Assembly (NCBI RefSeq): GCF_013315695.1
Contig: NZ_CP054353.1
Strand: one strand, 5' to 3'
Length of the DNA stretch: 64,000 nt
DNA from: Escherichia coli
GTDB taxonomy: Bacteria > Pseudomonadota > Gammaproteobacteria > Enterobacterales > Enterobacteriaceae
Of this stretch, positions 24,821 to 48,133 are shown piece by piece (the stretch's first letter is position 1; the number at the start of each line of letters is the position of its first letter). The notes under the pieces are model-generated. The model searched no databases. It had not been told where the DNA came from and worked only from the letters and a program-made list of their open reading frames with translations. The translations under genes and the position numbers were made by a program.

Positions 24821-27800
24821 TTACTCGGTTACCGCTTGTTTAGGTTTACGCGAAAAACGCAGCCGCAGACGGTCGAAAAAGAGATACACCACCGGCGTGG
24901 TATACAGCGTCAGAAGCTGGCTCATGACCAGACCGCCGACAATGGTGATCCCCAATGGTTGCCGCAACTCCGAGCCGTCACCGCCCGACAATACCAGCGG
25001 CAGCGCACCAAACAGCGCCGCCAGGGTAGTCATCATAATCGGGCGAAAACGCAGCAGACAGGCCTGGAAAATAGCTTCCTGCGGCGTGAGGTTACCGTGC
25101 CGTTGGGCTTCAAGCGCAAAATCGACCATCATAATGGCGTTTTTCTTCACGATGCCGATTAATAGCATGATCCCTATCAGGGCGATTAGGCTGAACGGGG
25201 CATTGAACAGCTCCAGCGCCAACAGCGCTCCAACGCCCGCCGAGGGCAGGGTGGAGAGAATCGTCAGCGGATGTACGTAACTCTCGTAAAGGATACCCAG
25301 CACGATATACACCGTGGCGATGGCGGCGATAATCAGGATCACCTGCGAGTTCATCGTCTCCTGGAACACCTGCGCCGTGCCGGCAAAACTACCGCGCACC
25401 GTCGAAGGCACACCAAGCTGGGTCATTGCGCGATCGATCGCCGCACTGGCGTCCGAGAGCGATTTCCCGGTCGGCAGGTTGAACGAGATGGTCGAGGCCG
25501 CCGATAATCCCTGATGATTCACCGATAGTGGGGCATTCGCCGGTTGCCATTTAGCGAAATACGACAGCGGGATCGCTTTTCCTTCGTTATTGATAACGAA
25601 CATTTTTTCCAGCGCACTGATGTCCTGGGTATAGCGCGGATCCACTTCCATCACCACTTTATACTGGTTCATCGGCTGGTAAATGGTCGAGATTTGCCGC
25701 TGACCGAAGGCGTTATTTAACAGGCTGTTGGCGGCCTGCACGTCGATTCCCAGCCGTGCCATGGTGTCGCGGTCGTAAACCAGATTCATTTCCGCGCCGT
25801 TATCCTGCTGGTCGGAGTTCACGTCCGCCAGTTCCGGCAATGTCGCCAGTTTTTTGCGGATTTTCGGCTCCCATTCGCGCAGTGCCGCCAGGTCGTCGGA
25901 TAACAACGTGTACTGATAGCTGGCGTTCGACTGACGTCCGCCAACGCGAATATCCTGCACTGCCATCAGGAACAGATTCGCCCCCGGTTCTTTCGCCAGC
26001 TTCACCCGCAAACGGTCGATAATTTGCTGCGCCGTTTCGCTGCGTTCGTCGCGTGGCTTGAGGGTGATAAACATCATCCCGCTGTTCACTCGCGAACCGC
26101 CGGTAAAGCCGGTGACATTATCCACCGCCGGATCGTCACGGATAATTTTCATGAAATCCTGCAACTTACCGCGCATCGCCTGAAACGAAATACTCTGATC
26201 CGCCTGTATCCCGCCCATCAACACGCCGGTGTCCTGCTCCGGAAAGAAGGTTTTCGGGATCGAGATATACAGCCAGATATTCAGCGCAATGGTGCCAAGC
26301 AGCACCACACCCACCAGACGGGTATGATTGAGCACCCATTTCAGCGACTTGCCGTAGCCTTGTTGCAGAGCAACCAACATGCGACCAAATCCACGCAGTC
26401 GCTTTTGCTCGCGCGGCTTGCTGGCTTTTAGCATCCAGCCGCACATCATTGGCGTTAGCGTCAGGGAAACCAGCAACGAAATACCAATGGCGACAGAAAG
26501 CGTCACGGCAAACTCGCGTAACAGGCGGCCCGGCAATCCGCCCATCAACAGCAGCGGCAGGAACACCGCCACCAGTGACAGACTCATTGATAGCACCGTA
26601 AAGCCGACTTCACGGGTGCCTTGCAGTGCGGCCTGTAGCGGTTTCATCCCCGCTTCCAGATGACGGGCAATGTTTTCCAGCACCACGATGGCGTCATCCA
26701 CCACAAAGCCAGTGGCGATGGTGAGCGCCATTAACGAAATATTATTGAGACTGAAACCACACAGGTACATCGCCGCAAACGTACCAATCAGCGAAACCGG
26801 CACCGCAACGGCGGGAATAATGGTGGCGCGACCCGAACGCAGGAATAAAAACACCACCAGAATCACCAGCGCCACCGAGATAATCAGCGTCTGCTCAACC
26901 TCTTCCAGCGACGCGCGGATAGTAGGGGAGCGATCCTGGGCAATTTGCAGATCAATCGCCGCCGGAATGGTCTCCTGCAACTCCGGTAATTTTGCTCGGA
27001 TGCTGTCTACCGTCTGGATAATATTGGCTTCCGGCAGCTTGCGGATCATCAGCAAAATGGCCGGTTTGGCGTTGGTCATCCCGGCGTTACGTACATCTTG
27101 TACAGAGTCGGTCACCGTCGCCACATCGCCCAGACGAACCGCTCCGCCGTTGTTGTAATGAATAATCAGCGGCTGATATTCAGCGGCAGTTTTCAGTTCG
27201 TCATTGGTCTGGATCTGCCAGCGGTGGGTGCCATCTTCCAGTGCGCCCTGCGGTTTACGCACGTTGGCATTGCTGATGGCAGTGCGTACGTCGTCCAGCG
27301 AGACGCCCTGATTAAACAGCGCCTGCGGATTCAGCCCGACGCGTACGGCGGGCAGCGAGCTGCCGCCAACATCGACATCACCGACACCGTCGATTTGCGA
27401 AATCGTCGGAGCCAGCTGCGTCGAGGCGAAATCGTACAGTTCACCCTGCGAATAAGTATCGGATGTCAGCGTGAGGATCATAATTGGCGCATCCGACGGG
27501 TTCGCTTTGCGATAGGTCGGACGGCTGGGCATCCCGCTGGGTAGCAGACTTTGCGCGGCGTTGATCGCCGCCTGCACATCGCGCGCTGCGCCGTTGATAT
27601 CCCGGTCAAAATCAAACTGCAAAATAATGCGCGTGCTGCCGAGCGAACTGCTGGAGGTCATTTCGCTGACTCCGGCAATGCGCCCAAGTGAGCGCTCCAG
27701 CGGCGTGGCAACGGAAGACGCCATTGTTTCTGGTGACGCACCGGGCAGCGAGGCGCTGACCATGATCACCGGAAAATCGACCTGCGGCAGCGGGGCGACT

Positions 27801-27898
27801 GGCAGCATACGGAAACCCAGTATGCCGCACAGGGTAATGGCGACCGACAGTAAAATCGTCGCCACCGGGCGGTAAATGAAGAGGGCAAAAAACTTCAC
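24821..27898 (-). CDS. mdtC: RND multidrug efflux pump subunit MdtC
   Basis: 1025-aa RND permease; operon position. Confidence 0.9.
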
Positions 27899-30800
27899 TT
27901 ACGCCTCCTCTTCATGACGGGCAAAGCGGCTTTTGGTCCACAATGCCAGGCGGTCGAATAGCAGATAAATCACCGGCGTGGTAAACAGCGTCAGCACCTG
28001 GCTGACAATCAGACCGCCGACCATGCCGATACCTAACGGACGACGCAGTTCCGCGCCGACCCCGGTACTCAACATCAGCGGCAGCGCACCAAGCAGAGCC
28101 GCCAGAGTGGTCATCAGGATCGGACGAAAACGCAACAGACAAGCCTGGTAAATAGCTTCGCGCGGCGACATGCCTTGCTCGCGCTCAGCAGCCAGCGCGA
28201 AGTCGATCATCATGATGGCGTTCTTCTTCACGATACCGATCAGCAAAATAATGCCGATAATGGCAATCACATCCAGTTCGCTACCGGCAATCATTAACGC
28301 CAGCAGCGCGCCGACCCCTGCGGTGGGTAGCGTCGAGAGAATGGTGATCGGGTGAATAAAGCTCTCGTACAGAATGCCGAGCACGATATACATCGCCACC
28401 ACCGCCGCGACAATCAGCCAGACCGTGCTGCCCAGCGCCGACTGGAAGGCGAGGGTGCTGCCCTGGAACTGCGTGGTGATATCCACCGGCAGATTCAGCG
28501 TCTTTTCGGTGTCCATAATCGCTTGCACCGCATCGCCCAGCGAATAGTTATCCGGCACGTTAAAGGAGATGGTCGTTACCGGGAACTGATCCAGATGGTT
28601 GATGGAAAGCGGCGCAAAACGCTGCTCAATTTTGGCAATTGAGCTTAGCGGCACCACGCCGCCGTCGCTGCTGGTCAGGCGAATAGTATCCAGCGCCGCA
28701 AGCCCAGGAGTATTTTCGGTGTTGTGCTCCAGCACCACGCGATACTGGTTGGCCTGAGTATAAATAGTGGAAATCAGTCGCTGACCAAACGCGTTGTAAA
28801 GGGCGTTATCGACGTCCGCCATGCTGATCCCCAGACGGCTGGCGCTGTCGCGATCAACATTGACATACGCCACCAGCCCTTTGTCCTGCCAGTCGCTGGA
28901 GACATCAGAAAGCTGTGGCAGCTGCTGGAGTTTTTCCATCAACTGTGGCACCCAGGTACTGAGCGCATCCAGTGACGTGGCCTGCAAGGTAAACTGGTAC
29001 TGGGTGCGGCTGACCTGAGTATCAATAGTCAGGTCCTGCGTTGGTTGCAGGAAGAGATCGACGCCCGGCACTTTATCTACCGCCGTTTGCAGACGGGCGA
29101 TGACTTTTTGCACCCGGTCATCTCGTTCATCCAGTGGTTTGAGATTGATCTGTAAACGTGCACTGTTCAGCGACGGGTTAGTGCCATCAACGCCAACAAA
29201 TGAGGTCAAACTTTGCACTGCCGGATCCTGCAAAATCACGTCCGCGACCTGGCGTTGCCGCTGGGCCATATTGGCAAAGGAGCTGGATTGCGGTGCCTGC
29301 AAAGTGCCCTGAATAATGCCGTTGTCCTGCACCGGGAAGAAACCTTTCGGAATGAACACCCACAGCAGCACGCTAAGCAGCAGCGTGCTGAGCGCCACGC
29401 TTAAGGTCAGCCACGGATGATTCAGCACTTTCGCCAGTCCACGACCATAGGCGGCGATTATCCTGTCGAACATTTTCTCCGAGGCACGGGAGAAGCGGTT
29501 CTGTTTACGCAGTGACTCCTGGCTGAGCATCCGTGCGCACATCATCGGCGTCAGGGTCAGCGACACCACGGCTGAGATCAAAATCGCGACTGCCAGAGTA
29601 ATGGCAAATTCGCGGAACAGTCGCCCGACGATATCGCCCATAAATAGCAGTGGGATCAACACTGCAATCAGTGAGAAGGTCAGCGAGATAATGGTAAAGC
29701 CGATTTCACCCGCGCCTTTGAGCGCCGCCGCCAGCGGTTTTTCGCCTTTTTCGATATAGCGGGAAATGTTTTCGATCACCACGATGGCGTCATCGACCAC
29801 AAATCCGGTGGCGATAGTTAACGCCATCAGCGTCAGGTTATTGATTGAAAAATCGAGAAACACCATGACCGCGAAGGTGCCGATTAACGACAGCGGCACG
29901 GCGACGCCGGGAATGATGGTCGCCGGAATATTGCGCAAAAACAGGTAGATAATCATGACTACCAGCGCGATAGCCATCATCAATTCAAACTGAGTATCAT
30001 CGACGGATGCGCGAATATTGGTGGTACGGTCAGAAAGTACCGTCACCTTCACCGATTTCGGCAGACTCTCGGTGAGCTGTGGCAGCATCTGCCGGATGCT
30101 GTCGGCGGTGGAGATAATGTTAGCACCTGGCTGGCGCTGAACATTCATCACAATGGCCTGTTCTTTGTTCGCCCACGCGCCGAGCCAGCTGTTTTCTGCT
30201 CCTTGCTCTACGGTTGCGACATCGCCCAGACGAATCGGCGCGCCGTTCTGGTAGGCAATAATTAGCTGGCGATACTCTTCGGCGGATTGCATCTGGTCGT
30301 TCGCGGAAAGGGTGACCGCGCGGGAAGGGCCGTCGAGGCTACCTTTTGCCGAGTTAACGTTAGCGCCGGTAATGGCGGTGCGCACGGTTTCGCTGGTCAG
30401 GCCGAGGGCGGCAATCGCCTGAGCGTTAAGTTTGACGCGAACAGCCGGACGCTGACCGCCGGAAAGTGTCACCAGGCCGACGCCGGAAATCTGCGAGATT
30501 TTCTGCGCGACGCGGGTTTCCACCATATCTTCCACTTGCGTCATCGGCATGGCGGTTGAGGTGACAGCGAGCGTCATGATCGGCGGATCTGCCGGGTTCA
30601 CTTTGCTGTAAACCGGCGGGTTAGGCAGATCGCTCGGCAACAAGTTGGTCGCAGCGTTAATCGCGGCCTGCACTTCCTGCTCGGCGACATCGAGCGGTAA
30701 TGTTAGCTGGAACTGTAAGGTGATAACTGACGCACCGCCGGAACTTTGCGACGACATCTGTTTCAGGCCAGACATCTGCCCAAACTGGCGTTCAAGCGGC

Positions 30801-31021
30801 GCGGTAACGGCAGAGGTCATGACATCCGGGCTCGCACCTGGGTAGAGGGTAACCACCTGAATGGTCGGATAGTCCACTTCCGGCAGCGCCGAAACGGGCA
30901 GGGCTCGATAACCGATAATCCCGGCGAGTAAGATCGCCACCATCAGCAGCGTGGTGGCGACAGGACGCATAATAAACAGGCGCGACGGGCCGCCTGTGCT
31001 GCTCGGGGGTAACACCTGCAT
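27899..31021 (-). CDS. mdtB: RND multidrug efflux pump subunit MdtB
   Basis: 1040-aa RND permease paralogous to MdtC; overlaps mdtA stop by 1 nt. Confidence 0.9.
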
Positions 31022-32268
31022 CAGGAGCGTGCTCCTTTTTTCGCGTATTCGCGGCTGGTGGCTTTCTCTTCCGAAGTGGTGGCGCTCTGGGCTTCCACCA
31101 CTTCCACTTTCGCCCCTTCGGTCAGGCGATCAATTCCGTCCGTCACTACGCGGTCGCCCGCAGAAATACCTGCGCGGATCACCACTTTCTGACTGTCCTG
31201 AATGCCCGGTGTCACCAGATGTTTGCTGACTTTGTTTTCGCTATTCAGTACCCAGACAAAATGGCCTTCGTTGCCCATTTGCAGGGCGGCGGTGGGGATC
31301 ACCACGGCGTTTTGTTCGGTGTCGACTAACATGCGCGCGTTAACAAACTGATTGGGAAACAGCGCATCATCCTGATTATTAAAGCGAGCTTTCACTTTAA
31401 TCGTACCGGTAGTGGCATCGATTTGGTTATCGAGGCTTAACAGCGTGCCTTCGCTTAATTTCTTCGAGTTGGTGCGATCCCAGGCTTCTACCACCAGCGG
31501 TTTCCCGGCTTTTTGCGCCTGCACGACGGTAGCGATATCGCTTTCCGGCAGGGTAAAGAGCAAATCGATAGGATGCGTCTGGGTGATCACCACAATCCCG
31601 GTGGTATCACCACTGGAGATTTGGTTACCAACATCAACCTGCTTGAGACCAACGCGACCATCGACTGGTGCGGTGATGCGGCTCCAGTCGAGTTGCAGCT
31701 GTGCGCTGGCGACGCTTGCTTCATCAGCCTTAATGGTGCCTTCGGTTTCACTGACCAGCGCCTGTTGGGCATCCAGCTCCTGGCGGGAGACAAGATTGGT
31801 TTTTGCCAGTTGTTGATAACGCGCCAGGTCACGGCGGGCGTTGGCAAGCGTGGCTTTATCTTTTGCCAGTTGGCCCTGGGCTTGTGCTAATGCAACTTTG
31901 AACTGGCTGGGGTCAATTTCTGCCAGTAAATCGCCTGCTTTGACCTGCTGGCCTTCCAGGAAATGCAACGCCATCAGTTGACCGTCCACGCGGCTGCGCA
32001 CCGTAACAGTATTAGCGGCGGTAATGGTGCCAAGCCCGGTGAGGTAACGCGGAACAGCCTGTTCTACGGCGGTCGCCGCCTGAACCGGGGCTAATGGGCC
32101 GGAACGCATACCACGGCGACCACCCGCTGGCGATTGCTGCGCTTGTTTCGTCGCCCCTGGGGCTGCACTCCGGGAGTCATTGCGGCCTTGCCAGAACCAG
32201 AATGCGGCGATGGCGGCGATAACCACCACGATTACGATTACCCAACGGGATTTATAACTGCCTTTCAT
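31021..32268 (-). CDS. mdtA: RND efflux membrane fusion protein MdtA
   Basis: Start placed at [16 protein letters not shown] (415 aa) inside the longer six-frame ORF 31021..32415. Confidence 0.85.
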
Positions 32269-32321
32269 CGTTAAGAGTTTCTCTTCCTGAAACGTTTCGC
32301 GGAATGATACTAGTGTAGCCA

Positions 32322-32339
32322 GCCAATCAGGGAGAAAAA
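32322..32339 (-). promoter_or_regulatory. Candidate BaeR-binding box in the mdtA promoter
   Basis: Plus-strand GCCAATCAGGGAGAAAAA is the reverse complement of a sequence close to the BaeR consensus TTTTTCTCCATDATTGGC as I recall it; about 55 bp upstream of mdtA start. Confidence 0.5.
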
Positions 32340-32496
32340 TGGAGGAATTATGAAACACTATCGGGAATCGTCTGAATGGCGGGCACATTTGCGAGCACGC
32401 ATCCAGTAATAACACAGGAAACTATTTTATCTACGCGTTAGCGATAGACTGCATTCAGGGCAAAAGGAGGTAGGCCGACGATTTCAGCGGGACGCT

Positions 32497-32640
32497 GAAA
32501 CGGGAAAGCCCCTCCCGAGGAAGGGGCCTTAAATAAGGAAAGGGTCATGATGAAGCTACTCATCATCGTGGTGCTCTTAGTGATTAGCTACCCTGCATAC
32601 TAAGACTACCAGGGCGGGGGAAACCCCGCTCTACCCTCAC
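32497..32640 (-). ncRNA. sibB: Sib-family antisense sRNA (antitoxin) covering the ibs ORF; ends approximate
   Basis: Inferred from the known ibs/sib arrangement; minus-strand hairpin (GCCCCT...AGGGGC at 32508..32527) followed by a U-rich tract would form its terminator. Confidence 0.5.
32547..32603 (+). CDS. ibsB: Ibs-family type I toxin peptide, 18 aa (MMKLLIIVVLLVISYPAY)
   Basis: Tiny hydrophobic ORF with RBS AAGGAAAGGG, inside the first of two about 325-bp tandem repeat units; A/B naming is tentative. Confidence 0.75.
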   Translation: MMKLLIIVVLLVISYPAY

Positions 32641-32825
32641 TCCTGAAATTATGCCTTCACGATAAGATTGTCAATCCGCAGGCTTTGTAGTCTGCGATCC
32701 TGCCAGCAAATATTCTTTGCGAGTCGTTACGGAATAATCACCGAGGAAACTATTTTGTTCACGCGTTAGCGATAGACTGCATTCAGGGCGAAAGGAGGTA
32801 AGCCGACGATTTCAGCGGGACGCTG

Positions 32826-32962
32826 AAACGGGAAACCCTCTCCCGGAGAAGAGGGCTTTTAATAAGGAAAGGGTTATGATGAAGCACGTCATCATACTGG
32901 TGATACTCTTAGTGATTAGCTTCCAGGCTTACTAAGAACACCAGGGGGAGGGGGAAACCTCT
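32826..32962 (-). ncRNA. sibA: Sib-family antisense sRNA (second copy); ends approximate
   Basis: Same architecture as the first unit; hairpin CCCTCT...AGAGGG at 32835..32855. Confidence 0.5.
32876..32935 (+). CDS. ibsA: Ibs-family type I toxin peptide, 19 aa (MMKHVIILVILLVISFQAY)
   Basis: Second tiny hydrophobic ORF in the second repeat unit with the same RBS context; A/B naming tentative. Confidence 0.75.
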   Translation: MMKHVIILVILLVISFQAY

Positions 32963-33155
32963 CCCTAACCCTCACTCCTGAAATTATGTCACTCCGCCCT
33001 TAGTGTCAATCGACGGCTCTCCGTTCTTGCGAGGCGAATAGCAAAATTTTCTGCGCCGCCGGGCCTAATTCTGAAAGTTTCTTCGTTTGCTCTTATTTCA
33101 TTATTGCAATCGGTATGATACCGGACCTCAATAATTCTCTAAGAAAGGATTTCTT

Positions 33156-33815
33156 ATGAGCGAACAAATCACGTTTGCCACCAGCGATTTTGCCAGTAAC
33201 CCGGAACCACGTTGCCCCTGCATTTTGCTGCTGGATGTTTCTGGTTCTATGAACGGTAGACCCATTAATGAACTTAACGCCGGATTGGTTACCTTTCGCG
33301 ATGAGCTGCTTGCCGACCCGCTGGCCTTAAAAAGAGTGGAACTCGGTATTGTGACGTTCGGCCCAGTGCATGTGGAACAACCCTTTACCAGCGCCGCTAA
33401 TTTTTTCCCGCCCATCCTGTTTGCCCATGGGGATACACCAATGGGCGCCGCCATTACCAAAGCCCTGAATATGGTTGAGGAGCGCAAACGTGAGTATCGC
33501 GCCAATGGTATTTCCTATTATCGTCCGTGGATTTTCCTGATTACCGATGGCGCACCAACCGATGAGTGGCAGGCTGCTGCCAACAAGGTGTTTCAGGGGG
33601 AAGAAGATAAGAAGTTTGCCTTCTTTTCCATCGGTGTTCAGGGGGCGGATATGAAGACGCTGGCCCAAATCAGCGTTCGTCAGCCTTTGCCTCTTCAAGG
33701 ATTACAATTCCGCGAACTATTTAGCTGGTTATCCAGTTCGCTGCGTTCGGTTTCCCGCTCCACGCCGGGAACGGAAGTTGTACTGGAAGCGCCAAAAGGC
33801 TGGACGTCAGTGTGA
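33156..33815 (+). CDS. yegL: von Willebrand factor A (vWA) domain protein, TerY-like
   Basis: 219-aa ORF with MIDAS motif DVSGSM near the N-terminus; stop overlaps yegK start. Confidence 0.85.
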
Positions 33816-34573
33816 GCTGGCGTCTGGTTTATGCATCAGCCGTTGGAACGTCGCACATCAGCGCTGACTTGTCTTGCCAGGATGCCTGCCAGATGCAGGT
33901 TGCCTGGCTAGAAGACCAGCAGCCATTATTGTCGGTATTTGTCGCTGATGGCGCAGGCAGCGTCTCGCAGGGAGGCGAAGGTGCGATGCTTGCCGTCAAT
34001 GAAGCGATGGCTTATATATCGCAAAAAGTGCAGGGTGGGGAATTGGGGCTTAATGATGTCCTCGCAACGGATATTGTACTGACTATTCGTCAGCGATTTT
34101 TTGCCGAGGCAGAGGCCAAAGAATTAGCGGTTCGCGATTTTGCCTGCACATTTCTGGGGCTGATTTCATCGCCTAACGGCACATTGATTATGCAGATTGG
34201 CGATGGTGGCGTGGTGGTAGATTTGGGGCACGGTTTGCAATTGCCGCTCACGCCGATGGTGGGTGAATATGCCAACATGACGCATTTCATTACCGATGAA
34301 GATGCCGTTTCCAGACTGGAAACTTTCACCAGCACTGAGCGTGCGCATAGAGTTGCAGCATTTACGGATGGTATTCAGAGACTGGCGTTAAATATGCTGG
34401 ATAATTCTCCGCATGTGCCTTTCTTTACCCCGTTTTTCAATGGACTGGCGTCAGCAACGCAGGAACAACTCGATTTATTACCTGAATTGTTAAAGCAGTT
34501 TTTGTCCAGCCCGGCGGTAAACGAGCGTACGGATGATGATAAAACGTTGGCACTGGCTATGTGGTTACCATGA
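33812..34573 (+). CDS. yegK: PP2C-family serine/threonine protein phosphatase
   Basis: 253-aa ORF with PP2C-like metal-binding aspartates (FVADGAGS...DGGVVV); 13-nt overlap with yegI start. Confidence 0.8.
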
Positions 34574-36510
34574 AACCCACTTTATATACTGCTACTGGTG
34601 AGTGCGTTACGCCAGGCCGTGAACTGGGCAAAGGCGGTGAAGGTGCGGTTTATGATATCGAGGAGTTTGCCGATAGCGTCGCCAAGATTTATCACACGCC
34701 GCCACCCGCCTTAAAACAGGACAAACTTGCCTTTATGGCTGCGACAGCTGACGCGCAGTTGTTGAATTATGTCGCCTGGCCGCAGGCAACGCTTCACGGT
34801 GGACGAGGCGGAAAAGTAATCGGTTTTATGATGCCAAAAGTTTCTGGTAAAGAACCGATTCATATGATCTATAGCCCGGCACATCGTCGTCAACGTTACC
34901 CTCATAGTGCGTGGGATTTTCTACTCTATGTTGCGCGCAATATTGCTTCATCTTTTGCTACGATTCACGAGCACGGGCACGTCGTGGGTGACGTAAACCA
35001 GAACAGCTTTATGGTAGGTCGCGACAGCAAAGTAGTGTTGATTGATAGCGACTCCTTTCAGATTAACGCCAATGGCACGCTGCATTTATGCGAAGTCGGC
35101 GTGTCGCATTTTACGCCGCCAGAGCTACAAACCTTGCCATCATTTGTCGGCTTTGAACGCACCGCGAATCACGATAATTTTGGCCTTGCGTTGCTGATTT
35201 TTCACGTCTTGTTTGGTGGGCGGCATCCTTATTCCGGTGTACCGCTTGTCTCTGATGCGGGTAATGCACTGGAGACGGATATTGCCCATTTCCGTTATGC
35301 CTACGCGTCAGATAATCAGCGACGTGGTTTAAAACCGCCGCCACGATCTATTCCGCTGTCGATGTTACCGGGCGATGTTGAAGCCATGTTTCAGCAGGCA
35401 TTCACGGAAAGTGGCGTGGCAACCGGGCGTCCGACGGCAAAAGCGTGGGTAGCGGCACTTGATTTACTACGCCAACAGTTAAAGAAATGTACCGTTTCGG
35501 CAATGCATGTTTATCCCGGTCATTTGGCTGACTGCCCGTGGTGTGCGCTGGATAATCAAGGCGTTATCTATTTTATTGATCTCGGCGAAGAGGTCATTAC
35601 CACCAGCGGTGATTTTGTGCTGGCGAAAGTCTGGGCGATGGTGATGGCGTCAGTAGCACCGCCAGCATTGCAACTGCCATTACCCGATCATTTCCAACCG
35701 ACTGGCAGGCCGCTTCCTTTAGGCCTGTTACGGCGTGAATACATCATTCTGATTGAGATCGCACTGTCAGCGTTATCGCTGTTGCTTTGCGGCCTTCAGA
35801 CAGAACCACGTTATATTATTTTGGTTCCTGTGCTGTCGGCTATCTGGATTATTGGCAGCCTGACAAGCAAAGCGTACAAAGCAGAAATCCAGCAACGCCG
35901 TGAGGCGTTTAATCGTGCGAAAATGGACTATGACCATTTAGTCAGCCAGATCCAACAGTTGGGCGGGCTGGAAGGTTTTATCGCCAAACGGATGATGCTC
36001 GAAAAAATGAAGGACGAAATTCTTGGGTTACCGGAAGAAGAAAAGCGCGATCTGGCAGCACTTCAGGACACCGCAAGGGAACGGCAGAAGCAGAAGTTTC
36101 TGGAGGGATTTTTTATTGATGTTGCCTCTATTCCCGGCGTTGGCCCTGCGCGTAAAGCGGCGTTACGGTCCTTTGGTATTGAAACGGCGGCAGACGTTAC
36201 CCGACGGAGCGTTAAGCAAGTAAAAGGTTTTGGTGATCATCTGACCCAGGCGGTTATCGACTGGAAAGCGAGTTGCGAACGCCGTTTTGTGTTCAGGCCG
36301 AATGAAGCGGTAACGCCAGCAGACAGACAAGCGGTAATGGCGAAAATGACCGCCAAACGACATCGGCTGGAATCGGCGTTGACTGTCGGTGCGACAGAGT
36401 TGCAGCGATTCCGCCTTCATGCTCCAGCACGGACCATGCCGTTGATGGAGCCGCTACGTCAGGCGGCAGAAAAACTGGCTCAGGCGAAGGCTGATTTAAG
36501 CCGCTGCTGA
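34561..36510 (+). CDS. yegI: Atypical membrane Ser/Thr protein kinase-like protein with C-terminal helix-hairpin-helix
   Basis: 649-aa ORF; kinase catalytic-loop-like HGHVVGDVNQNS and DSD (DFG-like); two predicted TM helices (about residues 390-430); C-terminal coiled region with HhH motif IPGVGPARKAAL. Confidence 0.8.
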   Translation: MVTMKPTLYTATGECVTPGRELGKGGEGAVYDIEEFADSVAKIYHTPPPALKQDKLAFMAATADAQLLNYVAWPQATLHGGRGGKVIGFMMPKVSGKEPIHMIYSPAHRRQRYPHSAWDFLLYVARNIASSFATIHEHGHVVGDVNQNSFMVGRDSKVVLIDSDSFQINANGTLHLCEVGVSHFTPPELQTLPSFVGFERTANHDNFGLALLIFHVLFGGRHPYSGVPLVSDAGNALETDIAHFRYAYASDNQRRGLKPPPRSIPLSMLPGDVEAMFQQAFTESGVATGRPTAKAWVAALDLLRQQLKKCTVSAMHVYPGHLADCPWCALDNQGVIYFIDLGEEVITTSGDFVLAKVWAMVMASVAPPALQLPLPDHFQPTGRPLPLGLLRREYIILIEIALSALSLLLCGLQTEPRYIILVPVLSAIWIIGSLTSKAYKAEIQQRREAFNRAKMDYDHLVSQIQQLGGLEGFIAKRMMLEKMKDEILGLPEEEKRDLAALQDTARERQKQKFLEGFFIDVASIPGVGPARKAALRSFGIETAADVTRRSVKQVKGFGDHLTQAVIDWKASCERRFVFRPNEAVTPADRQAVMAKMTAKRHRLESALTVGATELQRFRLHAPARTMPLMEPLRQAAEKLAQAKADLSRC

Positions 36511-36522
36511 GCCATTTTTCAA

Positions 36523-37875
36523 TTAACGAAACACCACTTCCGCCCAGCGTGCCAGCCCGGCGGTGACGGAGCCAAAGTCATCGCCGCCTGCAATCGGAAT
36601 GCCCGGCAACTGTTCTGCCAGCGCTTTTTTAATCAGCGGCGATCGGGCGCTACCACCAGTCAGATAGATGACATCCGGTTTTTCCTGGGCGTTATCCAGC
36701 GCCAGTTGCACCTGTTCCAGAATTCGCGCCAGTGGCTGGTTGAGGGCGCTTTCCAGCCCTTGCTGGCTAATCAGAGTAGCCAGTTCATCGCTGATAAACG
36801 GCAGTGAGGCGCGGGTTTCCGCTACGCTTGAAAGCGCAATTTTGCTCTCTTCTGCGCTACGTACCAGGCGATAGCTTAAACGCTGACGCCAGACTTTCTG
36901 TAACAGGGCCACTTTTTCCGGTTCGCGGGCATCGCGTACCAGATCGTTAAGCAGACGACCATTGGCACTACTGTAGAAATCACTTTGCGCAGGGACGTCG
37001 TTGATGGCAACCGCATTCCACCACGGCAGAATCGGCAGCGCGATGCCTTTTTCGGTTTCGCCACCCATGCCCAGTAACGGCATCAGGTTTTTAAACGCCA
37101 GTGCGATATCCAGATCGTTACCGCCAATACGGCAACCACTGTGACCCAGCAGGCTGGCTTCACGATCGAGGCGCGAACGCCACTGTGGCCCCATTAGCAG
37201 TAAAGAACAGTCAGTCGTACCACCGCCGATATCCACCACCAGCACCCGTTTTTCTTCCTGCAAGGTGGCTTCGTAATCCAGCCCAGCCGCGACCGGCTCG
37301 TACTGGAATACCACATCCTTAAACCCGGCACGCTTCGCCGCGCGTTCCAGAATCCCTTGCGCCTGGGTGTTTGCTTCATCGCCGCCCAGCCCCTGGAAGT
37401 TGATCGGGCGACCAATCACTGCCTGAGTAATTGCCTCCGGCAGTTGAGCCTGCGCCTGCTGGCGAATGTGCAACATCATTGCGCAGACCAGATCCTCAAA
37501 CAGCGCTACCTGCTGCGGTTTTAAGCCGCTGGCACCGAGGAACGATTTTGGTGATTTCACAAACCACACCTCTTCTGGATCATCAATGTACTGTGCCAGT
37601 GAGGAAAGACCGAACTGCACGCTTTTCGCCGTAACATCGATATCTTCTTCGCGGTTATAACGAATCGCCCGACGCAGCAGCGCCTGCGTTTCATCGTCGT
37701 CTGCCGGAACGTCATGATGGCGGTACAGCCATTCGCTTACCGCTTCACGCGTTGGCGCGCAAAGCATTGAAGGCAGCAGCGTGCTGTCGTTTTCCATTTT
37801 TAGCAAATGCGGTTTACCGTCGCGCATGACCGCCACTAAACAGTTTGCTGTACCGTAATCAAAACCAATAAACAC
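36523..37875 (-). CDS. yegD: Hsp70/actin-like ATPase family protein
   Basis: Hsp70-type nucleotide-binding motifs (IGFDYGTAN; DIGGGTTD); start placed at a GTG (37873..37875) giving 450 aa; six-frame ORF extends to 37938. Confidence 0.8.
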   Translation of the reverse strand: MFIGFDYGTANCLVAVMRDGKPHLLKMENDSTLLPSMLCAPTREAVSEWLYRHHDVPADDDETQALLRRAIRYNREEDIDVTAKSVQFGLSSLAQYIDDPEEVWFVKSPKSFLGASGLKPQQVALFEDLVCAMMLHIRQQAQAQLPEAITQAVIGRPINFQGLGGDEANTQAQGILERAAKRAGFKDVVFQYEPVAAGLDYEATLQEEKRVLVVDIGGGTTDCSLLLMGPQWRSRLDREASLLGHSGCRIGGNDLDIALAFKNLMPLLGMGGETEKGIALPILPWWNAVAINDVPAQSDFYSSANGRLLNDLVRDAREPEKVALLQKVWRQRLSYRLVRSAEESKIALSSVAETRASLPFISDELATLISQQGLESALNQPLARILEQVQLALDNAQEKPDVIYLTGGSARSPLIKKALAEQLPGIPIAGGDDFGSVTAGLARWAEVVFR

Positions 37876-38008
37876 GAAATAATCCCCATGCCGGTGAAGA
37901 AGGGGCGTGACTTTAGCGAAATGTTGCCGTCGCGACAACCGGAATATGAAAGCAAAGCGCAGCGTCTGAATAACGTTTATGCTGAAAGCGGATTAACAAG
38001 GAGATGCG

Positions 38009-38857
38009 ATGTATACCCTGAACTGGCAGCCGCCGTATGACTGGTCGTGGATGTTGGGATTTCTCGCCGCCCGTGCGGTGAGCAGCGTGGAAACGGTCGC
38101 GGACAGTTATTATGCCCGTAGTCTGGCGGTAGGCGAATATCGCGGCGTGGTGACTGCTATTCCGGATATAGCCCGCCATACTCTGCACATAAATTTAAGT
38201 GCAGGTTTAGAACCTGTTGCCGCTGAGTGTCTGGCGAAAATGAGCTGCCTGTTTGATCTGCAATGTAACCCGCAGATTGTTAACGGTGCGTTGGGCAAGT
38301 TAGGCGCGGCGCGGCCCGGATTGCGTTTACCCGGCAGTGTTGATGCTTTTGAGCAGGGCGTGCGGGCGATTTTAGGCCAACTGGTGAGCGTGGCGATGGC
38401 GGCAAAATTGACCGCCAGAGTGGCACAGCTTTATGGCGAACGGCTGGATGATTTTCCGGATTATGTCTGCTTCCCCACGCCTCAGCGGCTGGCTGCAGCC
38501 GACCCGCAGGCATTAAAAGCGTTAGGTATGCCGTTGAAACGGGCAGAGGCACTGATTCATCTGGCAAATGCGGCGCTGGAGGGCACCTTACCAATGACAA
38601 TACCGGGCGACGTAGAACAAGCGATGAAAAAACTGCAAACTTTTCCGGGGATCGGGCGCTGGACGGCGAATTATTTCGCCTTGCGCGGCTGGCAGGCGAA
38701 AGATGTTTTTCTGCCGGATGATTATCTGATTAAACAGCGATTTCCGGGAATGACACCGGCACAAATCCGCCGTTATGCCGAGCGCTGGAAACCCTGGCGT
38801 TCTTATGCGTTGTTGCATATCTGGTATACGGAAGGCTGGCAACCAGACGAAGCATGA
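38009..38857 (+). CDS. alkA: DNA-3-methyladenine glycosylase II
   Basis: 282-aa ORF recognised as AlkA (HhH-GPD superfamily). Confidence 0.9.
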   Translation: MYTLNWQPPYDWSWMLGFLAARAVSSVETVADSYYARSLAVGEYRGVVTAIPDIARHTLHINLSAGLEPVAAECLAKMSCLFDLQCNPQIVNGALGKLGAARPGLRLPGSVDAFEQGVRAILGQLVSVAMAAKLTARVAQLYGERLDDFPDYVCFPTPQRLAAADPQALKALGMPLKRAEALIHLANAALEGTLPMTIPGDVEQAMKKLQTFPGIGRWTANYFALRGWQAKDVFLPDDYLIKQRFPGMTPAQIRRYAERWKPWRSYALLHIWYTEGWQPDEA

Positions 38858-38967: not shown

Positions 38968-41900
38968 TCAGTTAATCGCGAAATAACTGCTATTCACCAG
39001 CAAATCCAGCGGTTGGGCATCGGCAATCACATCGCCATAAATCAGATCGACGCCGATGCCCGAAAGCGTATCCATCACTAAGGGTAAAACGACTGGCCCG
39101 GCGATGGTTTTCATCCCGAGTCGCTGAGCATGCCCCTGAATAATCGTAATCAGCATCTCATCCATCAAATTACCCTGCACGCTGGCGCATAACTCACCAT
39201 CAAGTAGCAGGTAATCTGCCATATTTGCTTTCAGCGAGTTGAAGATTTGCAGATCGCGGCCCACCTGACTGAATACGATCCGACATCCCGCCAGCCGCAG
39301 TTTTTGCACGCTTGCTGCGTGATCTAAAATCGCGTCTGCCGGAATAATCAGATGTAATAACCGTGGTGGTAGAGGGCTATTTTCCAGCTGCTCAATTAGT
39401 TCATTCACCAGCGTGGCGCTACTCAAACCGGCAACGGAAAGGGGGAGGGCGATGCTTAAGCCTTTACTGGCAATCGCTTTTGCGGCCTGCTGGAAAAAAT
39501 CGTGGAATACCCGTCGGTCAAGAGCATGGCTAAGTGCCGGATCGCTGAAGCTACGACGAAATGTTTGTTCATCAATAATCTCGCCTTCGCAACTCCAGAG
39601 CTTAAGTGAAATCAGCCACAAATTACGCGCTTGCGGGATCCGCGGCGAAGCGACACCGTGGGCGATCATCATCAACTGATTCTCTTTAATCATCCGCCTC
39701 TGTTCATCAAGCGATATCGCCGCCCGTTCGCTATGTGCGGCAGCTTGCTGCGGTTCGTAAACCGTCACCCGGCCCCGTCCACCATTTTTGGAGGCATAAC
39801 AGGCGATATCAGCCTGCGACATCACTTCAGCCGCCTGATGATTGTTGTCATCAATCAAGGTAATCCCGGCACTGGCACCTACCCGATGTACACGTCCTTC
39901 CCAGATAAAGTGATAGTCATTCACGGCGCTGATAATGCGTGTAGCGATAAAACGCGCACTTTCGACATTACAATCTGGCAGCAGCAGACCAAATTCATCG
40001 CCACCGAGTCGCGCCAGCACGTCGCTGGAGCGCAGCATACTCAGCATCAACGACGCCAGTTCGCGCAGTAAAGCGTCGCCCGCCGCATGCCCGGCGCTGT
40101 CATTCACCGCTTTAAAGCGATCAAGATCGATAAACACCAGGGCATGTCGCTGATGCGTACTGTTTACCGTTTGCAGCAGGATGCGTAGTTGCTTCTCAAA
40201 ACTGGCGCGATTGGCGAGATGCGTCAGTGCATCATGGGAGGCGCTGTAGCTCAGCTGGCGCAGCATTTTGCGTGATTCGGTGACGTCCTGAATCACCAGA
40301 ACCGAGCCTATATTGCTGCCGTCCAGAGTACTTAACGGCGTAATACTGTAATGCACGTCGTAGCTGCCGCCGCTTCGGCAGTGCAACACCACATCTTGTT
40401 CAATCGCGGAACGTGAGGTGTCGGCACTGTAAATGTTCTCCATTAATGGTCCGTTGTCGCCAAAAGTAATATGCAACACCGTCAGGAGCGGAACACCTAA
40501 CGCTTCTTCCTGCGTCCAGCCGCTCATCTTCTCCTTCTCCGCCACCGGATTCATAAAGGTAATTTTCATTGCCATATCAATACAGACCACGGCTTCGCCG
40601 ATGGAATCCAGCGTTATGTGCAGGCGCTCTTTTTCCTGAAACAATGCCTCGTTAAGCTGTTTCACTTCGGTCATATCCATATTAATGCCGAGCAGGCGTT
40701 CGACTTCGCCTTCTTTATTCAGTACCCGGTTAGCGAGGGCGCGGATATGGCGAATGCCGTCTTTCACGGTAATGCGAAATTCCAGTTTAAAGGGCGAGCG
40801 TGATTGCAACGAATCACGAATCACGAATCACTTTTTCGGCGTGTTGGCGATCTTCCGGCAGCACGCACTCGTACCACACCTGCCAGTTCGGTTTGATATG
40901 CGGAGGAATTTCATACAGCTCGAACATCCGCTTATCCCAGCTAAAAATATTCGGCTTCAGCTCCCACTCCCAGATGCCAATCCCGCCCGCTTCGTTAGCC
41001 AGCGTGATGCGCTCCATCAGTTGCTGATTCACCTGTTCGGTGCGTTTTAGCTCGTTAATGTCTTCAATCTGAGCGATAAAATAGAGCGGCGTGCCATCCG
41101 TGTGGCGCACCAGTGAGACGGCAAGCAACGCCCAGACAACATCGCCATTGCGGTTGTAGTAGCGTTTTTCCATTGAATAGGTGTTTATTTCACCGCTGAT
41201 CAGCTTTTCAACCTGTTGGAGATCTTTATTGAGATCCTCCGGCCAGGTCAGTTGCTGAAAGGTGAGTCCGCGCAGCTCTTCCTGACTGTAACCGAGAAAC
41301 TGGCAGAGTGCTTTGTTGGATTGCAGCCATTGCCCCTCGGTGCCCACTAATGCCATGCCGATGGCGGAATATTCCATGGCGTTACGAAAACGGGTTTCGC
41401 TTTCGGAAATGTGTTTGCGTTCCGCACGAAAGGCATACATCACCATGGTCATGATGTTGGCGGGCAGCAGGATCAGCAAAAACGGTAGCCACGGCATATG
41501 GCTCATCAGGTATGTACGCGGCGTAGCAAGCAGGGAGGGATCAGCGGCCATCATCAGTGACACCATCATCACCGTGGTAAGGAAGATCAAAAAGGCTTCC
41601 ATTCGTGGCAGGCGCACGGCGCTCCACATCAACAGCACAATAATGAAAGTAAAAGGCCACGGCAGATACAGCATCGAAAGCCAGCTTAACGTCAGTGTGA
41701 TGGCTAACGTGAGCAGCGACTCAAAAAGCAACCGTGGGTTGCGATGGCGCAGCAGATAGTGTGGTTTAAATAACAATCCCAGCGGCACCAGTGCCAGTGC
41801 GCCGATGGATTCTGACAGTACCCATATCAAAAATGCCCTGAGAGGATCGTCTCCGGGCGTCAGCAGGATAACCAGAACACCCCCTAACAGAGGTGGAACA

Positions 41901-42298
41901 ATGGCGCTGCCGAGTGCTAGACGCAGCCAGTCAGCCAGATTTTGCAATGGGTTATACCACGGCAGCAATTTACGCAGTAGCACTGCCCCGACCACGGCTT
42001 CAACAATATTGATGGTCGTCCAGGTCATGTTCAGCGAGCTGGTGGAAAAAAGCAGGATGGATGCGGCGATATTTCCCAGCGAGCAGCTCAGCGCAATCCC
42101 CGGCCACATGCGCCCGGCATGGCGATAAAACGCCACCATCATGATGGACGTCGGGAACCACAGTGGGGCGAGTTGGGTGCCAAACTGCGAAAGCTCAAGT
42201 GAGAAAAGGGTGAAGATAAACGAGACTAAACCTAAACTGACCAGGTGAAGCAGCGGGTGGGGCAGGGCAATTAATACATGCTGTGATTGTTTGCTCAT
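38968..42298 (-). pseudogene. dgcE: Diguanylate cyclase DgcE (MASE1-PAS-GGDEF-EAL), frameshifted by a 7-bp tandem duplication
   Basis: Two ORFs (40814..42298 membrane MASE1 plus PAS; 38968..40824 PAS-GGDEF-EAL) in different frames overlapping at three tandem copies of GAATCAC (40811..40831); deleting one copy gives a continuous ORF of about 1105 aa. Confidence 0.8.
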
Positions 42299-45857: not shown

Positions 45858-46148
45858 CTAAGCAGCATGTGGATATTGAATTTCAATACGTTGAATATGC
45901 AATCCTGCATGAGCCATCATGGTGATCAATTTATCGATACTAAAGATCTGGATCTTACCTCTGGCAAGTTCAGATATGCGAGGTTGAGTGACCCCTAAAG
46001 CAGACGCTGCCTGAGCCTGGCTAAACCCTTGTTGTTCAATCCAGTTATTAATGATCGTTACAAGTTCGGCACGGATCCGCATATTTTCCGCTTGTTCAGG
46101 GGTGTCACTCACCGCATCCCACACACTATCAAAGGTTTCAATTTTCAT
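45858..46148 (-). CDS. HigA-like antitoxin (XRE-family HTH)
   Basis: HTH QAQAASALGVTQPRISELARGK; immediately downstream of and overlapping a RelE/ParE-superfamily toxin-like ORF, the HigB-HigA gene order. Start codon uncertain (46148 or 46166). Confidence 0.65.
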   Translation of the reverse strand: MKIETFDSVWDAVSDTPEQAENMRIRAELVTIINNWIEQQGFSQAQAASALGVTQPRISELARGKIQIFSIDKLITMMAHAGLHIQRIEIQYPHAA

Positions 46149-46475
46149 TTTTCCGCTCCTGAACAAGTTCTTTATAGCGTCGTTTGTCTAAATCAATATC
46201 CGATTGACTGGTAGTCTGTGTTTTCTTTTGAAAACAATGCAATACGTAAACCGCTTCTTCAAATTTTGCGATATACATGACGCGATAGATCCCATCAGCA
46301 TCGCGAGTACGAATCTCTCGCACACCAGGGCCGATAGTTGAAAAGGTTTCCAGTCGTATGGGTTTAACCCTTGTTGGATCCTGTCGAGTTGATAGCCAAT
46401 TTCCTGTCGAGACGATTCTGGAAATGCGCGTAAATCGTCAAGACTGGTATCAAGAAAAGCCAGCTTTTTTCTCAT
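46138..46475 (-). pseudogene. HigB-like toxin (RelE/ParE superfamily), split by a frameshift
   Basis: N-terminal part (46188..46475) and C-terminal part (46138..46323) are in different frames; adding one T/A in the A4 run at 46341..46344 gives a continuous toxin of about 112 aa. Confidence 0.6.
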
Positions 46476-46549
46476 TACTCCATCCTTAGATTATACTAAA
46501 TTTTGTATAAATCAAATGCGCAGTTTGAACCTGCGCATTTGATGTTTTA

Positions 46550-48133
46550 TCACACTTCGTACTCCATCTCGCCATCCTTACGTAGCGGAATAATTTGCAC
46601 CTTCTGCACGCGATGGCTTTCCACCTGCAACGTTTTAAGCAAATAATCCCCCACCTGAACTTCTTCGCCAGGTTTTGGAATACGCTGCAAATATTCCATC
46701 AATAGCCCGGCAATGGTGTGATATTCACGTTTTTCATCCAGCGGCAGCGGCACATATTGCACCAGATCCTCCAGCGGCATATGACCATTCGCCGTCCAGG
46801 AACCGTCCGCATTTTTCTGAATATCATGGCGGGCGTCGATCTCTTCCACTTCGTTCGGTAAGTTACCGGCAATGGTTTCAGTGACGTCACTTAATGTCAC
46901 AATTCCTTCCACCGAGCCAAACTCATCCACTACAAAAGCAAAGTGCGTGCGGGCATTACGGAACTGCTCCAGGGCAGGTAACAACGGCAAGGTTTCCGGG
47001 AACACCAGCGGCTGGCGAATCAACACCCGCAGGTTGAGCGGTTCGCCGCGCAGAGACTGTTGTAGCAGGTCGATAACGTGAACAACACCGAGCAAATCTT
47101 CTGCGTCATCACCGTCGGTAACCACCAGCCGCGTATGCTGATTTCGCTCCAGCAACTGGCGGATTTCTTCTTCCGGTGCGTTGAGATCGATATGCTCAAT
47201 ATCGTGGCGCGACGTCATAATGCTGCTGACGGTGCGCTGGTTAAGATTAAGTACCCGCTCAATCATCCGCCGTTCCTGCGGATTAAAGATTTGCTGGTTA
47301 CCATGATCCACCAGCATAGACGCGGTTTCGGCGTCCAGTTCCGCATCTTCTTTTTGCCCGCTAAGCAGGCGCATTACCGCTTCGGTAGTCCGCTGGCGCA
47401 GCGTCTGGTTAGCGGAAAGAAAACGTCGCCGGTTAAAGATAGCCAACTGATTGAGCGCCTCGATCATCACCGAGAAACCAATAGCAGCGTACAGGTAGCC
47501 TTTCGGAATGACGAAGCCGAAACCTTCTGCCACCAGGCTAAAGCCAATCATCAACAGGAAGCTTAAGCAGAGAATAACGATCGTCGGGTGACTGTTAACA
47601 AATTGCGTTAATGGCTTGCTGGCCATCAACATCAGGCTGATAGCGATAACGACGGCGGCCATCATGACCAGTAAATGGTCGACCATCCCGACGGCGGTAA
47701 TCACCGAGTCGAGTGAGAAGATGGCGTCCAGTACCACAATTTGTGTCACCACCCCCCAGAACTTCGCACCTTTGCGTTGTGTGGGGTTATTGCTGTCTTT
47801 CCCCTCCAGCCGTTCGTTCAGCTCCATCGTGGCTTTGAACAGCAGGAAGAAACCACCAAACAGCATGATTAAATCGCGGGCGCTAAAGGTAAACGAGCGG
47901 AAGCTGAACAGCGGTTGAGTCAGGGTGACCAGCCAGGAGATTGACGCCAGCAGTAACAGGCGCATTAACATCGCCAGCAGCAGCCCGGTAACCCGTGCGC
48001 GGTCGCGCTGCTTCGGCGGTAGTTTTTCGGCGAGGATGGCAATAAAGACCAGGTTATCAATGCCGAGGACCAGTTCGATTACAATCAGCGTGATTAACCC
48101 GGCCCAGATAGACGGATCGGCAATCCATTCCAT
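46550..48133 (-). CDS. yegH: TerC/CBS/CorC-domain membrane protein
   Basis: Start placed at [13 protein letters not shown] (527 aa); TerC-like membrane domain plus CBS pair and CorC C-terminal domain. Confidence 0.8.

Follow-up and report, generated by a model that had tools for sequence, protein, structure and literature searches.

The yegL, pphC (yegK) and yegI genes of Escherichia coli lie together on a 64,000-nucleotide stretch of the chromosome (contig NZ_CP054353.1; hereafter the window), in a region that is 100% identical to NZ_OZ547117.1. Every sequence property that we compared supports the placement of this triad in the broad TerY-P family, a class of systems comprising a TerY-like vWA protein, a PP2C phosphatase and a Ser/Thr kinase. 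As summarized in PMC11090510 and PMC4978471, these were predicted to act as a phosphorylation switch (Anantharaman, Iyer and Aravind 2012). What is joined to the kinase is a zinc ribbon or, where block of T7-like phages has been demonstrated, an OB fold (PMC11090510, PMC4978471, PMC7699616), and cells carrying TerY-P survive while the phages are blocked (PMC7699616, 10.1101/2022.08.12.503731). Thus the description of TerY-P as a phosphorylation switch and the reported phage resistance, both invoked in an earlier interpretation of these letters (the sequence-only reading), are found in the literature (PMC11090510, PMC7699616). The operon and the TerY-P kind of system are already known, and the activities of the kinase and the phosphatase have been published. 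By analogy with the TerY-P systems that have been tested, we give roughly even chances that the purpose of the triad is defence against phages or incoming DNA. The genes of the locus are:

33156-33815, + strand: yegL, a 219-aa TerY-type vWA protein (RefSeq 'vWA domain-containing protein')
33812-34573, + strand: pphC (yegK), a 253-aa PP2C-like Ser/Thr phosphatase with a GTG start (RefSeq 'protein-serine/threonine phosphatase PphC')
34570-36510, + strand: yegI, a 646-aa inner-membrane Ser/Thr kinase with an ATG start (RefSeq 'protein kinase YegI')
36523-37875, - strand: yegD, a 450-aa ATPase of the Hsp70/actin fold, convergent with yegI and outside the conserved module

The three genes of the triad are co-directional and translationally coupled, as the sequence-only reading had it, and their open reading frames (ORFs) lie where it had placed them. 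The stop of yegL and the start of pphC overlap by four nucleotides (GTGA, 33812-33815), and the stop of pphC overlaps the start of yegI in the same manner (ATGA, 34570-34573), given an ATG at 34570. For this second junction an overlap of 34561..34573 had been proposed. The overlap stands, and the start needs a minor correction; the in-frame GTG at 34561, nine bases upstream of the ATG, would generate a protein of 649 aa, while both RefSeq and the published REL606 protein begin at the ATG and have 646 aa. The yegD gene is indeed convergent and directly downstream, its stop codon 12 nt from that of yegI. A scan of the locus for promoters and terminators gave no signal exceeding shuffled expectation.

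The family assignment comes from a protein-by-protein comparison with a reference triad, that of the IncHI2 tellurite-resistance plasmid pHNBY4G-1 (locus L063). YegL is 29% identical to the plasmid TerY (BLASTP, E=2e-21), and YegK matches the plasmid PP2C with E=6e-5. YegI matches the plasmid kinase with E=7e-7 over 408 aa, an alignment in which its C...CPWC element falls on the C..C...CPYC ribbon of the plasmid protein. The order vWA, PP2C, kinase is identical in the ter plasmid and the window. The TerY-P assignment is supported because each of the three proteins has a homologue in the IncHI2 triad, the order agrees and the zinc knuckle is common to both, and in this the earlier proposal of a TerY-P-type triad is borne out. 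Searched by tblastn, YegL matched TerY genes in about 2300 ter plasmids. When its relatives were aligned with three plasmid TerY proteins, the residues of the metal-ion-dependent adhesion site (MIDAS) and a Ser-rich C-terminal motif, F..W(L/V)S.S...S.S, were found in common.

Likeness to the ter-plasmid triad therefore includes the MIDAS residues and Ser-rich motif of the vWA protein and a zinc-ribbon-like element at the same position after the kinase. There are also differences. The plasmid TerY possesses an additional TerY-C metal-binding domain (346 aa, against 219 for YegL), the plasmid phosphatase carries a 270-aa N-terminal extension, and the plasmid kinase is a soluble protein of 499 aa lacking the transmembrane hairpin, coiled coil and helix-hairpin-helix of YegI. 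Moreover, the plasmid triad lies within the ter cluster, where its neighbours are terW, a TerD-family gene and two more TerY-like vWA genes, whereas the triad of the window stands alone. Homology to a triad in such company could suggest a tellurite or metal stress module, in which metals or oxyanions would be sensed or buffered through the MIDAS of YegL, and kinase and phosphatase would form a metal-dependent switch. Both enzymes prefer Mn2+ (10.1101/303594, 10.1101/819920), and a TerC-family gene, yegH, is found about 9 kb away in syntenic strains, each of which would fit such a role. However, genes for TerD, TerZ, TerB and TerC are not adjacent to the triad in the window, no ter genes occur in the contexts of the 10 relatives annotated with Pfam, and the cassette travels alone; we consider a metal stress function most improbable. 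The yegH gene itself encodes a membrane protein and lies, by synteny, at about 46080-47660 in the window, so that two genes of 'Ter' families stand ~9 kb apart, yegH being downstream of yegL; in the syntenic strains it is annotated at L069 22244+, L070 22065+ and L071 22736+. Its proximity to yegL is probably coincidence, because udk, dcd and asmA sit between them.

YegL is the most conserved part of the triad. It was the best-conserved partner in 28 of 28 loci, with a median identity of 68%, compared with 48% for YegK and 47% for YegI. It matches the Pfam VWA model with E=1.2e-9, and the MIDAS sequence DVSGS occupies residues 27-31, in agreement with the vWA protein called by the sequence-only reading. 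The name of its family in the COG database is, we presume, 'vWA domain of TerY type'. The following elements of the gene can be located:

33198-33221, + strand: family-specific N-terminal NPEPRCPC motif
33234-33248, + strand: MIDAS D27-x-S29-x-S31 (sequence motif)
33429-33446, + strand: MIDAS T94
33537-33551, + strand: MIDAS D131
33720-33761, + strand: Ser-rich tail, common to plasmid TerY1-3

The two enzymes have been studied directly. Rajagopalan and Dworkin purified both PphC and YegI (10.1101/303594, 10.1101/819920). PphC, a PP2C dependent on Mn, removes phosphate from YegI (10.1101/303594), consistent with the strong match of YegK to Pfam PP2C_2 (E=3.5e-51) and with its earlier identification as a PP2C-like phosphatase; the K-12 and REL606 proteins are 92% identical (10.1101/303594). 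YegI is a Mn2+-preferring Ser/Thr kinase of the inner membrane, the activity of which is abolished by the K39D and D141N substitutions, and in which the DSD sequence that stands for DFG is essential (10.1101/819920). Its activation is by autophosphorylation in trans, which follows second-order kinetics and falls on Ser153, Ser160 and Ser162; PphC takes these phosphates off, and in vitro PphC is itself phosphorylated by YegI (10.1101/303594, 10.1101/819920). PhoA-LacZ fusions place both the N- and C-termini of YegI in the cytoplasm (10.1101/819920). Overproduction of either YegL or YegI leads to more DNA damage (10.1101/354589). The two enzymological papers make no mention of TerY, phages or the helix-hairpin-helix region (10.1101/303594, 10.1101/819920), and no paper of the searchable literature was found to contain 'yegI' and 'TerY' together. 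The sequence-only reading had called the system under-described. This is right for the physiological role and overstated for the proteins, given that PphC and YegI have been purified and that mutants, phosphorylation sites and topology are published.

The kinase is the most elaborate of the three proteins. Pfam Pkinase does not match YegI; Pfam gives HHH_5 alone, a marginal hit (E=7.6e-4) at residues 518-554, and kinase modules of NCBIfam and PADLOC match it weakly. The AlphaFold model, built from a 39-sequence alignment, has a mean predicted local distance difference test score (pLDDT) of 88.6. Searched against the PDB with Foldseek, its first ~300 residues retrieve the Hanks kinases PknB and BRAF with a probability of 1.0 and TM-scores of 0.6-0.7. 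The description of YegI as kinase-like thus holds for the structure, while the Pfam profile misses it. The catalytic loop is VGDVNQNS, so that HRD is replaced as well as DFG. K39, D141, D159, D161 and S162 are invariant across the 39 YegI sequences, and the allele in the window has K39, D141, S153 and D159-S-D-S162 in place. With a bilobal kinase fold and the catalytic Lys and Asp, YegI can be classed as Hanks-type. Its parts are arranged as follows:

34570-35469, + strand: residues 1-300, atypical Hanks-type kinase domain (Foldseek match on the AlphaFold model)
35479-35553, + strand: residues 304-328, putative zinc knuckle or zinc-ribbon-like element (C307, H313, C322-P-W-C325)
35740-35868, + strand: residues 391-433, tight transmembrane hairpin (hydropathy; helices in the model)
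35875-36507, + strand: residues 436-646, stalk formed by an antiparallel coiled coil, its tip bearing two helix-hairpin-helix motifs
36112-36243, + strand: the helix-hairpin-helix motifs, IPGVGPARKAAL... and VKGFGDHLTQAV

In the model the knuckle is formed by a short beta-hairpin and a helix, and C307, H313, C322, W324 and C325 are invariant in all 39 sequences, at identities down to 30%. The two transmembrane helices of the sequence-only reading correspond to hydrophobic segments at residues 391-409 and 415-433, and its C-terminal helix-hairpin-helix to the HHH_5 match, modelled at the tip of the stalk. The stalk itself (residues 440-646, nt 35887-36507; pLDDT 94.7) is an antiparallel coiled coil of ~200 residues. 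It matches the NCBIfam Pol IV thumb model at 0.0049. We infer DNA binding from the motifs, because the fold searches return nothing but generic coiled-coil hairpins. The COG family of YegI presumably bears the name 'protein kinase and helix-hairpin-helix DNA-binding domains'. The C-terminal coiled-coil/helix-hairpin-helix module also occurs on its own, in a 293-aa protein of the Agrobacterium tumefaciens plasmid pAt (L074 5776-6657) that is encoded directly after the His-Xaa-Ser radical-SAM genes hxsB, hxsC and hxsA. In L066/L067, too, a pair of radical-SAM genes is found ~8 kb from the triad.

How does this architecture compare with that of better known systems? Like the anti-phage TerY-P of Gao et al. 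2020, tested a second time in Pseudomonas aeruginosa (10.1101/2022.08.12.503731), the triad is a stand-alone cassette of vWA, PP2C and kinase genes. Further points of likeness to the Gao et al. system are a putative nucleic-acid-binding module after the kinase and the presence of relatives of the triad in defence islands. The module differs, however; it is an OB fold in the systems that have been tested (PMC11090510), whereas YegI has a zinc knuckle, transmembrane hairpin, coiled coil and helix-hairpin-helix. No OB fold was found after the YegI kinase domain, the high-confidence models showing no beta-barrel. A second comparison is with the kinase/phosphatase pairs PknB/PstP, PrkC/PrpC and Stk1/Stp1. 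The YegI fold is closest to PknB, the kinase is dephosphorylated by a co-operonic PP2C, and autophosphorylation occurs on the activation loop (10.1101/303594, 10.1101/819920). In contrast to those kinases, YegI lacks an extracytoplasmic sensor (PASTA) domain, both termini being cytoplasmic; its catalytic loop (VGDxxQxS) and DSD are atypical, to the extent that Pfam Pkinase misses the domain; and its gene is obligatorily linked to one for a TerY-type vWA protein.

How widespread is the cassette? A scan of one genome per species yielded 56 loci, in Escherichia species, Klebsiella spallanzanii, many Burkholderiales, Acidobacteria, Planctomycetes, Cyanobacteria, an actinobacterium, Verrucomicrobia, Lentisphaerae and Myxococcota. 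The order YegL>YegK>YegI is found in about 47 of the 52 non-Escherichia loci, across ~ten phyla (phmmer against all ORFs); the others are truncated by the end of a contig or have no detectable partner, and one is rearranged. All-against-all clustering of the neighbourhood ORFs revealed no conserved fourth gene, nothing recurring apart from the triad itself and shadow ORFs antisense to it. Megaplasmids, pQBR103 among them, also carry full-length triads of the YegI type. When 1.84 billion cluster representatives (50% identity) were searched with a profile, 6770 matched at E<=1e-30, and most of the best 150 are of ~646 aa. The best explanation is that the triad is a self-contained three-gene cassette that has spread horizontally and become fixed in the genus Escherichia. 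We found no YegI-type gene in GenBank phages. The PHROGs families 28389, 37072 and 37888 are near-identical to YegL, YegK and YegI at or near full length, but since GenBank phages have no such genes these are probably an artefact of prophage prediction, chromosomal DNA having been swept in, and we have not used them as evidence of carriage by phages. The rearranged locus, from Obscuribacterales (L054 7022-9967), has its YegL-like vWA domain within an ORF of ~980 aa. In Planctomycetes and some Alphaproteobacteria (L035-L037, L042-L053) the YegI homologues have 900-1060 aa, with extra inserted sequence.

The sequence-only reading had included yegD in the module, and a four-part system could be envisaged in which the Hsp70-like ATPase is, for example, a target or chaperone of YegL. 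The gene does abut yegI, the pair is listed as an 'excludon' with overlapping transcripts (PMC12288877), and overexpression of yegJ raises yegD mRNA (PMC13232886). Yet yegD adjoins the triad in the five Escherichia loci and in none of ~50 others having downstream sequence, and the triad has no conserved fourth gene. In E. coli ET5 the arrangement is mdtA-ibs-yegD-alkA, with yegD at the same site and the triad absent. The protein matches NCBIfam PRK11678 'molecular chaperone' with 807 bits, and the gene is under housekeeping-like constraint, its ratio of nonsynonymous to synonymous divergence (dN/dS) being 0.02-0.05. We give a four-part system very little credence indeed and have rejected yegD as a component; being linked in Escherichia only, and retained in ET5 without the triad, it is an independent resident gene.

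We examined 18 contexts outside Escherichia, 10 of them annotated with Pfam over 10 kb, and eight from distant phyla in which the five nearest large ORFs were identified. Defence genes lie within 8-10 kb in 11 of the 18, a count made without a formal background control; for neighbours of the restriction-modification (RM) or restriction type the figure is again 11 of 18, and there are none beside the triad in E. coli. Recognized defence or mobile-element genes are present within 10 kb in seven of the 10 Pfam-annotated contexts, and RM genes are among the five nearest large ORFs in four of the eight distant loci. The annotated neighbours include:

Klebsiella spallanzanii: GmrSD, SymE, type I RM
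Piscinibacter: SLFN-like helicase, NOV_C, SNase, BrxR, JetB
Chromobacterium: PifA, AbiH, Tn7-like transposon
another relative: type I RM, Mrr
another relative: BrxR and a complete Hma system
another relative: dCTP deaminase, E2/JAB, resolvase
another relative: Wadjet, ScoMcrA-like and GmrSD-like genes
L061 7719-8474, L066/L067 7700-8501, L076 7685-8467 and L078 7691-8473: 70-aa ORF and SNase gene

The last of these regions, found in four of the 10 Pfam-annotated contexts (all Burkholderiales), immediately precedes the vWA gene and has its orientation. The 70-aa ORF is conserved. The SNase resembles staphylococcal nuclease, has a match (1.2e-9) in the PADLOC candidate family C3a212 (SNc+LTD), and may be an effector add-on that is lacking in E. 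coli.

In E. coli itself, the 5-kb segment carrying the triad is present at >=80% coverage in 5400 of 5426 complete E. coli genomes (99.5%), as expected from the conservation noted in the sequence-only reading. Such a core, syntenic locus under purifying selection, without defence genes for neighbours, is what might be anticipated if the kinase and phosphatase served housekeeping signalling, regulating an endogenous process such as stationary phase, envelope stress or DNA metabolism, with YegL as an adaptor and no role against phages. Such expression as has been observed was weak and limited to stationary phase, and yegI mutations are recurrent in long-term evolution lines (10.1101/819920, 10.1101/303594); moreover, about 100 Ser/Thr phosphoproteins of E. 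coli have no assigned kinase (10.1101/819920). On the other side, the distribution is patchy, the only Enterobacteriaceae representatives matched being Escherichia and K. spallanzanii, while 60%-identical copies are found in Burkholderiales and on plasmids. Outside Escherichia, most of the contexts sampled belong to defence islands or mobile elements, yegI is interrupted by a stop or frameshift in two other Escherichia species, and ET5 lacks the triad altogether. We therefore regard a housekeeping function as a serious alternative, but an unlikely one. The interrupted genes are those of Escherichia sp. MOD1-EC7003, with an in-frame stop (L003 9378-9380), and Escherichia sp. E1V33, with a frameshift (L004 ~5950-6056); in both, yegL and pphC are intact.

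Another possibility is that the triad is a relic, acquired long ago and tolerated in E. coli without being transcribed or having any function. In 1925 of the 5426 genomes including K-12, pphC and yegI stand apart with the oppositely oriented yegJ between them, as part of a segment of ~730 bp (L001 4575-5300), and this insertion breaks the translational coupling of pphC and yegI; the allele in the window is without yegJ at the 34573/34570 junction. That yegJ is so frequent, that expression was undetectable (10.1101/303594), that yegI is disrupted in two Escherichia species and that laboratory evolution yields loss-type mutations (10.1101/303594) would all be consistent with a relic. However, the three ORFs are intact with their catalytic residues kept, 99.5% of genomes retain the locus, and both purified proteins are active (10.1101/303594, 10.1101/819920). 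Values of dN/dS are 0.05-0.08 for yegL, 0.07-0.13 for pphC and 0.14-0.21 for yegI, well below 1 over a synonymous divergence (dS) of 0.1-0.4. These are real genes under purifying selection, and a non-functional relic is improbable. The amino acid sequences of PphC and YegI change 3-10 times faster than those encoded by the flanking genes (mdtABC, yegD, udk, dcd). Positive selection in an arms race was considered as a candidate and rejected, since dN/dS does not exceed 0.21 and mdtABC shares the high synonymous divergence. The stretch from mdtC to alkA (24821-38857) has dS values of 0.08-0.30 between E. coli lineages, compared with 0.03-0.10 for udk, dcd and asmA downstream, and 11 of 5419 matching E. 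coli records have >=99% identity to the window over the triad region.

A role in defence must equally be weighed against several observations that count against it. In E. coli the triad is core and fixed in position between genes of efflux, DNA repair and cyclic di-GMP signalling, which is unusual for a defence system. Expression was undetectable under laboratory conditions (10.1101/303594), and the searchable literature yielded no phage phenotype for yegLKI or its near relatives. Three of the 18 contexts (L064, L075 and L045), two of them among the 10 annotated with Pfam, look plainly housekeeping or metabolic, and a further one of the 10 is ambiguous. The neighbourhood evidence is suggestive only, because it argues from association with no formal background to set it against. 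In the PADLOC check that the sequence-only reading had called for, the four proteins gave no TerY-P call; YegL reached E=0.019 (12.5 bits) with the 'TerY' model, YegK matched none of the TerY-P models, and YegI matched generic kinase models alone. This negative result is weak and does not amount to exclusion, because the textbook ter-plasmid triad is likewise missed by the PADLOC TerY-P models, which were built on the Gao et al. system and are narrow. Finally, a defence mechanism would draw on three predicted properties: binding of zinc by the knuckle; binding of DNA by the helix-hairpin-helix stalk; and the use of YegL as a substrate by YegI.

If the triad does serve defence, its parts could operate as follows. 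In the resting state YegI would be held off by PphC. On a trigger at the membrane, dimers of YegI would trans-autophosphorylate faster than PphC could reset them; the most likely trigger would be foreign DNA, read by the zinc knuckle together with the coiled-coil stalk tipped by the helix-hairpin-helix motifs. Active YegI would then phosphorylate the Ser-rich tail of YegL, host or phage proteins, or both, and the MIDAS metal-ion site of YegL would turn phosphorylation into an output. In E. coli such a cassette would be nearly silent, with yegJ interrupting it in about one-third of strains, K-12 among them. A more specific proposal, which we put forward tentatively and as a good deal less probable than a defensive purpose in general, is that YegI-type triads are a membrane-anchored form of TerY-P immunity, a class of its own so far missed by the catalogues, in which the stalk and knuckle of a kinase in the inner membrane detect phage or plasmid DNA on entry and YegL is switched on by phosphorylation.

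The remainder of the window near the triad has features of its own. The order of genes is mdtB and mdtA (- strand), two Ibs/Sib repeats, yegL-pphC-yegI (+ strand), yegD, alkA and dgcE. The repeats, at 32532-33009 between mdtA and yegL, are tandem type I toxin-antitoxin loci:

32532-32674 and 32861-33009, - strand: Sib RNAs
about 32547-32603 and 32876-32935, + strand: Ibs ORFs

Three or four copies are present here in other E. coli strains, and one in ET5. With a copy number that differs between strains, the interval from mdtA to yegD is a variable hotspot of small size. The diguanylate cyclase gene dgcE (yegE; 38968-42298, - strand) appears as two ORFs, split by a lesion at ~40825-40831, which is a 7-bp tandem duplication (GTGATTC) relative to ST131. 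There is a further, in-frame 6-bp duplication (GGAGAA) near 40535-40540. In this strain dgcE is probably a pseudogene.

No Hanks-type kinase/PP2C pair other than YegI and PphC has been described in E. coli. Their placement with TerY-P turns a vague question of role into specific experiments, given a mobile cassette, relatives in defence islands and an interrupted copy in K-12. Two of the results hold their value even if the idea of defence should fail, namely the removal of yegD from the module and the recognition that the vWA protein, rather than the enzymes, is the most constrained part of the triad. Should defence prove to be the function, it would add a widespread subtype to the catalogues (6770 clusters at 50% identity) and explain the purpose of the pair. 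A silent cassette of innate immunity, fixed in the chromosome and broken in K-12 by yegJ, would in that case be present in almost all E. coli.

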